Shown: in pieces, positions 7,080 through 10,066 of the stretch
How positions within the stretch are numbered: position 1 is the stretch's first letter
How the letters are laid out: each line of letters starts with the position of its first letter
Notes under the pieces: model-generated
What the model saw: only the letters and a program-made list of their open reading frames with translations
What the model was told of the DNA's origin: nothing
The model's database searches: none
DNA from: a virus
Strand: one strand, 5' to 3'
DNA: 43,869 nucleotides
UHGV virus genome: UHGV-0210493
Position numbers and translations under genes: made by a program

Positions 7080-7574
7080 CTAATGTTCATCAATTTCTTT
7101 TTGCTGCAAAATACCTTCATCACGTACACTTAAATTAGATACCTTGGCACGCAATGTATCACCTGTTCCATTTCCACCTAGATTCTTATAGGCTTCAAAT
7201 AGATAATCAAAGTTGTTCAACTCCCCAACAGTGATATACCCACGCTTGATGTATTCATCAGCTTTGTTCCATATTTGATTATGGAGTGAAGCCTTCTCAG
7301 CCTTGACGATTTTCTGGCTTCTAATTTCAGCCATTGCCTGATATTCCTCTACATTTTTTAGGCGTTTGTCTTGGTCGGTATTCGCCGTTTCTAAGGCTGT
7401 GATTGTTTGCTCCCTAAGCTCATTCTCTGCCCTTTTAGCTTTAACTAGCTTAGTGACCCATGTACCGACCCGCCAAAGAGTAGCCAACAGTCCACTGCCA
7501 AATGCCGCTGCCCAAAAGCTGTTAATTTCCAAAAACTCTTTCATTCTAATTTCCCCCAACTGAACATATGCCAC
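7080..7574 (-). CDS. membrane-anchored coiled-coil protein (alternative start at 7544 with GGGGGA RBS)
   Basis: N-terminal TM (FWAAAFGSGLLATLW) then coiled coil; position suggests lysis-associated or accessory role. Confidence 0.5.
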   Translation of the reverse strand: MAYVQLGEIRMKEFLEINSFWAAAFGSGLLATLWRVGTWVTKLVKAKRAENELREQTITALETANTDQDKRLKNVEEYQAMAEIRSQKIVKAEKASLHNQIWNKADEYIKRGYITVGELNNFDYLFEAYKNLGGNGTGDTLRAKVSNLSVRDEGILQQKEIDEH

Positions 7575-7627
7575 CTGCTTTCATATAAATAAAAAACAAT
7601 CAACTATGAAGTTGATTGTTTTAGGTA

Positions 7628-8905
7628 TTATTGTTTTTTTAGACTGGTTCCCTTGACCGCTGCATAAATAAATCTATTTCCGTAAGTAAATATAATGTAC
7701 AATACGCATACAAAAAATATCATCCTGAATAATGTAAGCGGATTGTATAAAAACCACCTAGGTATTGTACTTATAACAATTACCGCCGTTAAGCTATACA
7801 GATCAGAATTTTTGGTGCAAATTTTTCTAAAAATGAAACAGACAACCAAGGCGGCCATGATAACACCAAACCATCCAAACCAAAAATAGAAGTGTGTAGG
7901 AAACAGCCCCCCTCCTACATTAATAAAATAGTTTTCACTGACGTATTTAGTGACATTTCCTGAATTATTATTTCCTCCTCCAAATATAGAAACAACAAAG
8001 TTGAAAAAAGATATAATTCTTTCTCTAAATGGTATATTGATCAGTTCTGTGGATGCCACATGTGTCGCGGATGCATAATAAGCATAAACAGGTGTATCAA
8101 ATACAAGAAGGCGATCTTTGAGGGACAGCAATACATGCCATATACTAAAACCATATAAGCTAAAACTTGTTCTGTAGGCACCTATTAGAGAGTTAACAAA
8201 AACGCCCCCTATTGTAAGAAGAAGAGCAGTCTTCTTATTTAATGCATCATAAAAAATTGTAGAAATAGCTAGAATAATTATTTGTAATGAGGTAATTCTT
8301 CCTCCATAATAATAATCCTGGAAAATATAAATAGCCATAATCAAGACTAGAATCATTTTCCTAAAAAACTTATCTCCGGACGAGAAGTATCCAAATAAAA
8401 AAAGAAGTATAGAATACTCATACATAGGGGAGATATTAACTGTATATTGATTAGAGAAAGTCCTATCGATTCCATATATACCAATATATACTAAAATTAT
8501 TATCAAAATATAGAAAATAACTACATTATCTTTTGGTTTAGGAGGATTAATTTCCGTGACCTTAGGGAAAAAGGCCGCCAATGTTGTCATAAAAAGTAAA
8601 ACTATTCTAAGCGTCAAATCATAAATATGAAAATTTTTCACTTCAGTAAGAGGAATCCCTAAAGGCCCTCCAACGAGATATTCACCGACACTAATACTGT
8701 ATATACAGTATGATAAAAACAACATAGCCACCATTAATGGAATTGAGTTTCGGCTCTTAAAAACTAATATCAAACTCAACAATATTGAAGAAAAAGCCTC
8801 TAATTTAGATGTTATTTCACTTGATGGAAATAAAATATAGTATATTATTAATAGAATTAAGCCCGAACTGTAAAAAAATCTTTCTTTACTAATACTAATA
8901 CCCAT
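7628..8905 (-). CDS. polytopic membrane protein, Wzy/EpsG-like polysaccharide polymerase or ligase candidate
   Basis: About 425 aa; roughly 10-12 hydrophobic helices; Y/F/I-rich; markedly AT-rich DNA; GGAGGG RBS before the ATG at 8905. Confidence 0.55.
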   Translation of the reverse strand: MGISISKERFFYSSGLILLIIYYILFPSSEITSKLEAFSSILLSLILVFKSRNSIPLMVAMLFLSYCIYSISVGEYLVGGPLGIPLTEVKNFHIYDLTLRIVLLFMTTLAAFFPKVTEINPPKPKDNVVIFYILIIILVYIGIYGIDRTFSNQYTVNISPMYEYSILLFLFGYFSSGDKFFRKMILVLIMAIYIFQDYYYGGRITSLQIIILAISTIFYDALNKKTALLLTIGGVFVNSLIGAYRTSFSLYGFSIWHVLLSLKDRLLVFDTPVYAYYASATHVASTELINIPFRERIISFFNFVVSIFGGGNNNSGNVTKYVSENYFINVGGGLFPTHFYFWFGWFGVIMAALVVCFIFRKICTKNSDLYSLTAVIVISTIPRWFLYNPLTLFRMIFFVCVLYIIFTYGNRFIYAAVKGTSLKKQ

Positions 8906-9077
8906 TTTACCCTCCAAAAACACTTATATTTATATCTATTCAAGAATTATATATCAAAATAATACACAATTCTAGTAAATATAAAATAAGCGTTTTGAAT
9001 TTATAAGCCTCTACACATTGACTTGCATCAGTTTTTGAAATACATTTGAGTAATTAAAGAAAAGGATGGTAGAAATG

Positions 9078-10031
9078 AAAAGAGATTCCCGCATAGATAT
9101 TTTAAGAGCAATAGCAATTTTACTAATCATGCTAGCTCACGTAAAACCGCCCGAGCCAATTCAACAAATTAGAGTTTTCGACGTCCCTTTAATGGCAATA
9201 CTATTAGGAATGTCCTTTCTTCTGAGTAGCAGAGCCGCAACTTATTTTGATTACGTAATAAAAAGATTCAAAAGATTAATAATCCCTGCATGGGTTTTCC
9301 TTACCATATTTTTCTCATTGACTTTGTTAGCATGCATCATCTTAAAAGTTGCCTTTCCTTATAAGTTAGCTACGATTTTAACTTCATACTCACTTATTTC
9401 CGGAATTGGATACGTTTGGATAATCAGAGTATTTTTCACAATAGCTATTTTTTCTCCTTTAATTTATTGGATATCCGTACGAATTACGACCTTTTTTGCT
9501 AGGAGTGCTACGATTTTAATAGCAATGATAATTCAGCAAATTTTATGGATTATTGATAGCAATATTTCCAATATCTATTTTAGTTTAATTTTTGAGCAAC
9601 TAATAGCAATATCTTTCGGATATTTAATTTGCGCTCTTTATGGTATTTGGTTGTATCAGTATAGCAAAACCATGCAAATATACTCAATTTTGATTTACAG
9701 TGTTCCGATGTCAATCTTAATGATCGTAGAACATTTACCTAATTTAGCAGATCAGAAGTATCCCCCTTCAATGCTTTTTTTACTTTATGGAATTATTGTA
9801 TCCACTGTTCTATTTCTGTTTGTGTCCATAGTAAATATTGATTCAATTTTATTCAGTTGGACATCTCGTTACAGCCTAGAATTGTATTATTGGCACATAT
9901 TACCAGTTACATTCATAGACTTCACATATCCGAATATGGAATGGTATTGGAAATTAATTATCATCATACTTTTTTCTTTTTCTGTCACATTCCTACAGGT
10001 GAAAAAACTACCTCGATTATTTACTTTGTAA
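9078..10031 (+). CDS. acyltransferase family 3 (Oac/OatA-like O-acetyltransferase) membrane protein
   Basis: N-terminal RIDILRAIAILLIMLAHV acyltransferase_3 signature; about 10 TM helices; alternative ATG at 9066. Confidence 0.8.
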   Translation, partial: KRDSRIDILRAIAILLIMLAHVKPPEPIQQIRVFDVPLMAILLGMSFLLSSRAATYFDYVIKRFKRLIIPAWVFLTIFFSLTLLACIILKVAFPYKLATILTSYSLISGIGYVWIIRVFFTIAIFSPLIYWISVRITTFFARSATILIAMIIQQILWIIDSNISNIYFSLIFEQLIAISFGYLICALYGIWLYQYSKTMQIYSILIYSVPMSILMIVEHLPNLADQKYPPSMLFLLYGIIVSTVLFLFVSIVNIDSILFSWTSRYSLELYYWHILPVTFIDFTYPNMEWYWKLIIIILFSFSVTFLQVKKLPRLFTL

Positions 10032-10066
10032 AAACATCCGCATTTACGTTGTAAGTGCGGATGTTT
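10032..10066. terminator. bidirectional hairpin terminator between acyltransferase (+) and tail fibre (-)
   Basis: AAACATCCGCA / TGCGGATGTTT 11-bp stem with 13-nt loop. Confidence 0.6.

Follow-up and report, generated by a model that had tools for sequence, protein, structure and literature searches.

The 43,869-nt viral genome UHGV-0210493, analysed over its whole length and hereafter called the window, carries at 7628..10031 a cassette of two divergent genes, one encoding an O-acyltransferase of acyltransferase family 3 (AT3) and the other a membrane protein of 425 amino acids (aa) predicted to be a Wzy-type polysaccharide polymerase, next to the gene of a beta-helix tailspike. Our preferred reading, held with moderate confidence, is that the cassette and the tailspike together form a lysogenic-conversion module of a temperate Enterococcus siphovirus, through which the phage receptor would be masked and the serotype of the host converted. 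The observations on which this reading is built are the AT3 family of the first protein, the position of relatives of the second in the Wzy slot of capsule (cps) loci together with its distant homology to known polymerases, the moron-like architecture of the cassette, the three-gene block found in related prophages and the recurrence of the arrangement in three phage lineages.

According to the proposed mechanism, the cps locus of the host would build capsule repeat units linked to undecaprenyl pyrophosphate, which would be flipped by the host Wzx. The 425-aa phage protein would act as an alternative Wzy on the outer face of the membrane, creating a linkage different from that of the host Wzy, and the AT3 enzyme would transfer an acyl group, probably acetyl from cytoplasmic acetyl-CoA, to a sugar of the same polymer. 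The capsule altered in linkage and acetylation would escape binding or cutting by the neighbouring tailspike; the lysogen would be protected against superinfecting phages that use this type of receptor, and its surface antigen would change as well. The tailspike, the AT3 enzyme and the polymerase would move together because the structure recognised and the structure masked must match. The substrate would be a capsule of the type made by loci with FnlABC and N-acetyl-L-fucosamine (L-FucNAc), and the cassette would be expressed from the prophage.

The divergent cassette and its two proteins

The elements of the cassette and its immediate borders are the following.

7622..7593, minus strand: terminator-like hairpin directly after the polymerase stop codon (13-bp stem, -14 kcal/mol, z = -6.2, T-run)
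7628..8905, minus strand: polymerase open reading frame (ORF) of 425 aa, whose ATG at 8905 is preceded at 5 nt by a GGAGG ribosome-binding site
8906..9074: spacer with promoter-like hexamers, a perfect TATAAT on the minus strand at 8951 and TTGACT-17-TACATT on the plus strand at 9018..9046
9075..10031, plus strand: acetyltransferase ORF, 318 aa, with the ATG at 9075 preceded by a better-spaced AAGGA
10032..10066, both strands: hairpin of 16 pairs between the convergent acetyltransferase and tailspike genes, candidate bidirectional terminator
10073..12379, minus strand: tailspike/baseplate protein with a TP901-1 BppU-like N-terminal domain and a right-handed beta-helix C-terminal domain

Both cassette ORFs had been placed at these positions by an earlier note on this DNA and are found there in the ORF listing. 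The mechanical ORF of the polymerase reaches a GTG at 8923 (7628..8923(-), 431 aa), and an alternative start at 9066 would give an acetyltransferase of 321 aa, the 318-aa form being that of most database copies. The two genes diverge around the 8906..9074 spacer, which has 24.3% GC. With 30.9% GC against a window mean of 38.2% (standard deviation 2.7), the cassette as a whole is the lowest of 830 sliding 2.4-kb windows, in agreement with the earlier description of it as poorer in GC than the surrounding genes. The spacer had also been described as a shared AT-rich promoter region: its composition and its position between divergent genes agree with this, whereas its promoter hexamers stay at the level of shuffled sequence. 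A divergent promoter is plausible, and the spacer presumably holds both promoters. The hairpin at 10032..10066, proposed in the earlier note to close the cassette, is real (-22.8 kcal/mol and z = -7.1 on the plus strand, -19.6 kcal/mol and z = -5.9 on the minus strand). A T-run trails its minus-strand version only, so that it serves as a terminator for the tailspike gene at least as much as for the acetyltransferase gene. The second hairpin, at 7593..7622, was absent from that note's list. As regards the marks of a moron, deviant GC and flanking hairpins are present, the promoters are indistinguishable from chance and presence varies, a prophage of E. innesii being without the cassette at this site. 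The architecture, with the lowest GC of the window and its own terminators, is moron-like.

The product of 9075..10031 is assigned as a stand-alone AT3 O-acyltransferase. It matches PF01757 (acyltransferase-3) with E = 2e-15 and 57.2 bits against a cutoff of 31, over profile positions 3-318 of 326, and weakly matches phrog_3333, an O-acetyltransferase family (E = 2.5e-4). It displays R11-X10-H22 in the first transmembrane (TM) helix and R64-F-K-R67 (RXXR) in the first cytoplasmic loop, corresponding to the R/K-X10-H and RXXR motifs which were defined in AT3 enzymes and found important by mutagenesis (PMC9558356). In an alignment of 30 homologues, H22, R64 and R67 are invariant and R11 is conserved in at least 90%. 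The family assignment of the earlier note is thus sustained by a match above cutoff and by both motifs, and the signature string that it quoted, RIDILRAIAILLIMLAHV, is present in the protein. The enzyme has a single Pfam domain, no fused SGNH domain and nine segments above a strict hydropathy cutoff. Stand-alone AT3 proteins without an SGNH domain also include the pneumococcal capsule acetyltransferases. The nearest relatives beyond the phage cluster are about 50% identical and belong to Enterococcaceae and lactobacilli; the closest named chromosomal one, from Tetragenococcus halophilus (50% identity), is encoded by the last gene of a cps locus, directly after the Wzx flippase, and a relative from Liquorilactobacillus lies outside any such capsule locus. 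The gene runs antisense to the phage late genes, and its ratio of nonsynonymous to synonymous substitution (dN/dS) among near-identical prophage copies, 0.15, indicates purifying selection.

The 425-aa protein is polytopic and aromatic-rich, as had been noted from its translation: with 18.4% F+Y+W it ranks first among the ORFs of 150 aa or more in the window (mean 10.1%), and nine of its segments exceed the strict hydropathy cutoff. Profile searches returned no match for it in Pfam, PHROGs, PADLOC or PDB sequences, so that of the two cassette proteins for which the earlier note proposed a Pfam search, the AT3 enzyme alone is recognised there. The curated Wzy models considered were TIGR04370, PF14296, PF04932, PF14897 and NF033860. 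The NCBIfam model TIGR04370 (“oligosaccharide repeat unit polymerase”) aligns with the 425-aa protein over profile positions 104-395 of 396, with E = 1e-3 and 18.2 bits, under its cutoff of 40. By profile search, the family of the protein comprises 943 representatives at 50% clustering. Among 95 distant members (E <= 1e-69 to the family profile), 13 match TIGR04370 (best 2.3e-8), five match PF14296 O-ag_pol_Wzy (best 1.5e-7) and one matches NF033860 Wzy_O6_O28. Neither PF04932 (Wzy_C/ligase) nor PF14897 (EpsG) gave a match in the query and the 136 family members scanned. Homology to glycan polymerases, proposed in the earlier note, can therefore be traced through intermediate sequences to Wzy models; the Wzy side of the “Wzy/EpsG-type” likeness is retained and an EpsG identity is rejected for want of any PF14897 match.

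The genomic context of the chromosomal homologues points in the same direction. Those of Enterococcus faecium (53% identity), Melissococcus plutonius (55%) and a metagenome contig (49%), in the three loci examined (P0003, P0005 and P0007), all sit in Wzx/Wzy-type capsule loci. Each locus encodes CpsB, a Bac_transf priming transferase, an FnlA/WbcJ/WecB-like set for UDP-L-FucNAc synthesis, GT4 glycosyltransferases and a Wzx flippase; a CpsD-type kinase lies within the fetched stretch of two of the three, and a CapD-like dehydratase and a UDP-glucose dehydrogenase (the latter not in the Melissococcus stretch) are also found across them. In all three, the homologue is the sole polytopic protein without another assignment, i.e. 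it occupies the Wzy slot, and no other polymerase candidate is present. The phage copy is located outside any polysaccharide locus. On account of this slot and of the matches of distant members to curated Wzy models, the 425-aa protein is best read as a predicted Wzy-type repeat-unit polymerase. Phage and chromosomal members all share residues E163, R203, G332, R383 and Y387, which is consistent with an active enzyme whose arginines would bind pyrophosphate or sugar. An AlphaFold 2 model (predicted local distance difference test score, pLDDT, of 91) is all-helical with about 12 or more helices, and the invariant E163, R203 and R245 fall in two long regions, 147-203 and 245-340. Its best membrane-protein fold matches are WaaL, at the top, and FtsW, both weak; a Foldseek search against viral structures (BFVD) returned noise only.

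That the protein is not a polymerase, and would act instead as a WaaL-like ligase, as another enzyme of lipid-linked glycans or as a non-enzymatic membrane protein blocking superinfection, we regard as very improbable. Such a role would agree with the sub-threshold scores of the curated models, with the ligase WaaL as top structural match and with the lack of an RX10G motif. Against it, the cps loci with homologues contain a Wzx flippase and no other candidate for the polymerase, the transitive matches reach Wzy polymerase models and not ligase models, and the invariant catalytic-type Arg and Glu are retained in the phage copies.

A three-gene block among Enterococcus prophages

Genomes with members of the 90%-identity clusters of both proteins belong to Enterococcus casseliflavus, E. 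gallinarum, E. faecium and E. entomosocium, and the phage is a temperate siphovirus of the Enterococcus host group. In a blastn comparison with six related prophage or viral contigs (L001-L005 and L016), a block running from 7564 to at least 12771 and comprising the polymerase, AT3 and tailspike genes is 96-99% identical. Its boundary at 7564, just past the polymerase terminator, is a recombination junction with a variable lysis module: in all six loci the lysis side is made up of other genes, and some of them also differ in the tape-measure genes. In these alignments the tailspike, AT3 and Wzy genes behave as one recombination block common to Enterococcus prophages, and the functional unit as found takes in the tailspike besides the two genes of the cassette.

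The tailspike matches PF10651 (1e-28) and PF13229 (4e-11). Its residues 8-186 match ORF48 of PDB 4v96, the TP901-1 BppU baseplate (E = 2e-75), and the other 570 or so make up a pectate-lyase-type right-handed beta-helix. Such a beta-helix is the usual architecture of tailspikes that bind or depolymerise polysaccharides, and the C-terminal domain is a candidate polysaccharide-binding or depolymerising receptor-binding domain. The gene has 34.2% GC against 39.5% for the part of the window to its right (12382..43869), and its dN/dS among near-identical prophage copies, 0.05, indicates purifying selection. The cassette is accordingly flanked by a BppU-type beta-helix tailspike on one side and by holin and endolysin genes on the other, the placement given in the earlier note. 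As a separate observation, the beta-helix region at 10073..11779 has free-standing chromosomal homologues of about 490 aa in Chryseobacterium and Mucilaginibacter (35-42% identity), and a 37% identical homologue of the beta-helix occurs in a phi29-like podovirus contig (L022).

Two further phage lineages display a related arrangement. In L018, a tailspike (34% identity over the full length) is followed by Wzy (52%) and then AT3 (39%), in another gene order, the AT3 gene being here too oriented against the late genes; in L013, a BppU/pectate-lyase tailspike is followed by Wzy (66%), with no AT3 gene. A tailspike-adjacent polymerase thus recurs in three diverged phage lineages, the window block being the third. 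In a neighbour-joining tree, the phage polymerases fall on two branches inside the clade of Enterococcaceae cps polymerases. This nesting suggests that they were captured from host cps loci. The Enterococcaceae cps genes are the closest relatives of the cassette genes (53-55% identity for the polymerase, 50% for AT3) and their probable source; they differ from the cassette in belonging to complete biosynthetic loci of 15-20 kb which are not phage-borne, and the three loci with a polymerase homologue have no AT3 gene.

Synonymous divergence (dS) inside the block is uneven: between the window (7628..12379) and L001, L003 and L005 it is 0.007 for the polymerase gene and about 0.055 for the AT3 and tailspike genes, a pattern which suggests that the polymerase gene alone was recently exchanged. 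With only five substitutions, the dN/dS of the polymerase among near-identical prophage copies is uninformative.

In a collection of 50,697 isolate phage records, neither the cassette (megablast) nor either protein (tblastn) found a match, AT3 giving none at E <= 1e-5; the earlier judgement that such a pair would be unusual in a Gram-positive phage is borne out in this collection. IMG/VR contains a single contig with the polymerase, 100% identical over that gene, and the scan of species-representative genomes returned three Bacillales loci.

The cassette might also be cargo for host fitness, the polymerase and the decoration helping the host to make, restore or diversify its capsule for immune evasion or colonisation, with no role in exclusion between phages. 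Failure and variation in cps loci often concern the Wzy genes, morons are in many cases of advantage to the host (PMC3594210), and a truncation at 290 aa is annotated for some database copies of the prophage polymerase, a hint of on/off variation. We nevertheless give this explanation a small probability: tight co-inheritance with the tailspike, in one block whose junction lies exactly after the polymerase terminator, and recurrence beside beta-helix tailspikes in three lineages both suggest a connection with receptor recognition.

Strength of the conversion reading and its precedents

Several points weigh against the proposed conversion of capsule and receptor. The reading is a prediction from sequence and genomic context. 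The polymerase passes no curated Wzy model, scoring under the TIGR04370 cutoff as given above, and contains neither an RX10G nor an HX10G (HX9-10G) motif. Promoter-like hexamers in the spacer are not enriched (16 found, 17.3 expected in shuffled sequence). No free-standing small ORF which could encode an Iap-like inhibitor of the host polymerase occurs in 7575..7627 or 8906..9074; ORFs of 20-70 aa in 7000..10100 all overlap large genes, a peptide without homology being still possible. Host and phage polymerases may then simply compete. A matching cps locus in the lysogenic hosts (E. casseliflavus, E. gallinarum, E. faecium and E. entomosocium) is an assumption. Finally, a prophage of E. innesii (L020) has a tailspike with a 67% identical receptor domain and no polymerase, so that the linkage between tailspike and cassette is not obligatory, and a strict form of it was softened on this ground. 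The same prophage carries, after its endolysin gene, the gene of an unrelated AT3 of 348 aa (12066..13112 of L020), with no BLAST similarity to the enzyme of the window; acyltransferase morons, as judged from these loci, recur at different sites in these prophages.

The location of the polymerase gene on the late-gene strand is a further difficulty, as expression could be late rather than lysogenic, with hairpins bracketing the gene. A function in the lytic cycle would have the polymerase transcribed with the late genes and altering or exhausting lipid-linked precursors or the surface of the dying cell, for example by blocking the re-adsorption of progeny to debris. In L018 as in the window, the polymerase gene does lie on the strand of the tail and lysis genes. 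Hairpin terminators nevertheless flank it on both sides on the late strand, its AT3 partner runs against late transcription in both arrangements, and capsule remodelling within one latent period is unlikely to be effective, which makes this the least probable of the alternatives considered here.

The most credible of them, although still unlikely, is that the same enzymes act on a target other than the capsule. Phage adsorption in E. faecium depends on Epa besides the capsule (10.1101/2020.09.22.309401). Another target is also favoured by the fact that an FnlABC-type cps locus in the lysogenic species E. casseliflavus and E. gallinarum is an assumption. Conversely, the chromosomal homologues of the polymerase lie in three of three cases in capsule-type loci with CpsB, a priming transferase and Wzx, which are not epa-like, and the nearest named relative of the AT3 enzyme likewise ends a cps locus.

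Returning to a capsule-directed module, we put forward more tentatively a bolder version of it: the block would be a self-matched “recognise-then-mask” unit hopping among Enterococcus prophages and giving lysogens of E. faecium, E. casseliflavus and E. gallinarum new capsule serotypes, and its polymerase would override that of the host without an inhibitor peptide. This version is possible, though we would not call it probable.

For each step of the proposed mechanism, experimental precedent exists in other systems. Conversion of capsule or O-antigen by phages is established experimentally in Gram-negative hosts, namely for phage D3 and for Acinetobacter prophages. Within the Enterococcaceae, capsule wzy mutants of E. 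faecium adsorb phage 9184 poorly (10.1101/2020.09.22.309401), and insertion mutants of a cps wzy and of an acyltransferase gene of T. halophilus resist a phage (PMC10269466). D3, a phage of Pseudomonas aeruginosa, carries iap, wzyβ and oac, a unit which alters how a FucNAc-containing Wzx/Wzy-dependent polymer is linked and acetylated and which confers resistance to superinfection (PMC3594210, PMC4815439). The window shares with it an alternative phage-borne polymerase and an O-acetylase in one moron, here predicted from the genes. The differences are substantial: the target of D3 is the lipopolysaccharide O-antigen of a Gram-negative host, its Wzyβ has Wzy_C (PF04932) and RX10G, both absent from the Enterococcus phage protein, and its Oac has 687 aa against 318 aa for the stand-alone AT3 described here. 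D3 also has the small inhibitor Iap of the host polymerase, of which no counterpart is recognisable in the Enterococcus cassette; in D3, Wzyβ without Iap gives mixed polymers (PMC4815439).

In Acinetobacter baumannii prophages, a dpo tailspike gene and a wzy gene (wzy1Ph/wzy2Ph) are adjacent, the prophage Wzy replaces the linkage made by the Wzy of the chromosomal capsule locus, and the authors proposed self-protection against related phages (PMC13228068). A depolymerase-type tailspike near a Wzy and capsule conversion are common to both cases, demonstrated by structural chemistry there and predicted here. The Acinetobacter prophages differ by their Gram-negative host and by the fact that no AT3 beside wzy is described (PMC13228068). 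Acetylation by the Oac (OacA) of Shigella phage Sf6 blocks the phage's own tailspike endorhamnosidase (PMC9558356). Like the enzyme of the window, Sf6 Oac is a stand-alone AT3 of about 330 aa with RXXR, in a temperate phage with a polysaccharide-cleaving beta-helix tailspike; its similarity in sequence is weak (phrog_3333, E = 2.5e-4), it has no polymerase partner, and its gene lies beside the integrase and not the tailspike.

No report of a phage-borne Wzy, or of capsule seroconversion by an alternative Wzy, in Gram-positive bacteria was found in our literature searches; the label “polysaccharide polymerase” already exists in GenBank for this gene, by automatic annotation. If true, the proposed conversion could be the first case in which a phage changes the capsule serotype of a Gram-positive bacterium through an alternative Wzy. 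Prophages would then be able to remodel enterococcal capsules, also in the major hospital pathogen E. faecium, and the chromosomal cps locus alone would fail to predict capsule type and susceptibility to phages or antibodies. The same lesson on the prediction of capsules from the chromosomal locus was recently drawn for Acinetobacter (PMC13228068). It would bear on the prediction of host range in phage therapy, on the targets of opsonic antibodies and vaccines and on in silico serotyping. Moreover, a predicted function would be assigned to a sizeable family (943 representatives at 50% clustering) which has no Pfam model and is mostly annotated as “hypothetical”, and the tailspike and the masking enzymes would provide a concrete pair for studies of receptor specificity in Gram-positive siphoviruses. 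The value of the cassette lies in the capsule and phage-receptor biology of E. faecium and in giving a name to a predicted Wzy family hitherto without annotation.

Genome setting and neighbouring genes

By its gene content, the window represents a complete temperate siphovirus genome. Besides the genes described above, it includes the following.

7080..7574, minus strand: lysis-side ORF (164 aa), likely start ATG at 7544 (154 aa), with a GGGGG ribosome-binding site upstream
Lysogeny and regulation: CI-like repressor, serine integrase and Rha/KilAC antirepressor
Replication: D5-type primase-helicase
Tail: Dit, and Tal with lysozyme and M23 domains
Lysis: Dp-1-type holin and amidase endolysin

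It has the appearance of a complete, circularly permuted phage genome and not of an integrated prophage, given that the integrase and repressor genes adjoin the endolysin end, that no host genes flank them and that a GenBank contig has nearly the same size. This virome contig, a third-party annotation (TPA) record of 43,899 bp, is 30 bp longer than the window and holds an exact copy of the acetyltransferase, named “OpgC protein” (DAG73033.1). Its polymerase match, named “polysaccharide polymerase” (DAG73031.1), is a member of the 90%-identity cluster of the polymerase.

The gene on the lysis side of the cassette encodes a protein with an N-terminal TM helix and a coiled coil, related to phrog_4105/4257 (function unknown). 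The 154-aa form is 34% identical (E = 9e-21) to a 117-aa protein encoded ahead of the Dp-1-type holin in L018, and it also shows weak similarity to the XhlA of L013. The gene (7080..7544) lies outside the conserved block, and unrelated genes take its place in L001-L005. The earlier note had left it between the cassette and the lysis module. Membership of the cassette is rejected, given the block boundary at 7564, the exchange of the gene in L001-L005 and the L018 homologue which travels with the holin, and the protein is probably a lysis-module accessory.

Three other features of the window were recorded. Between the CI-like repressor (2293..3006) and serine integrase (3656..5056) genes, 3065..3622(+) encodes a protein of 185 aa with coiled-coil-type matches and a weak C-terminal LysM match, PADLOC returning coiled-coil noise only; this slot often holds superinfection-exclusion proteins in Gram-positive temperate phages. 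A phage-encoded tRNA-Ile with the unusual anticodon AAT was predicted by ARAGORN at 31766..31838(-). Between the Dp-1-type holin and the amidase endolysin, the ORF at 6482..6790(-) encodes 102 aa and matches phrog_13973 (E = 2e-47, function unknown); the phrog_13973 gene is located before the endolysin gene in L001 and L005, and after it on the opposite strand in L003/L004.

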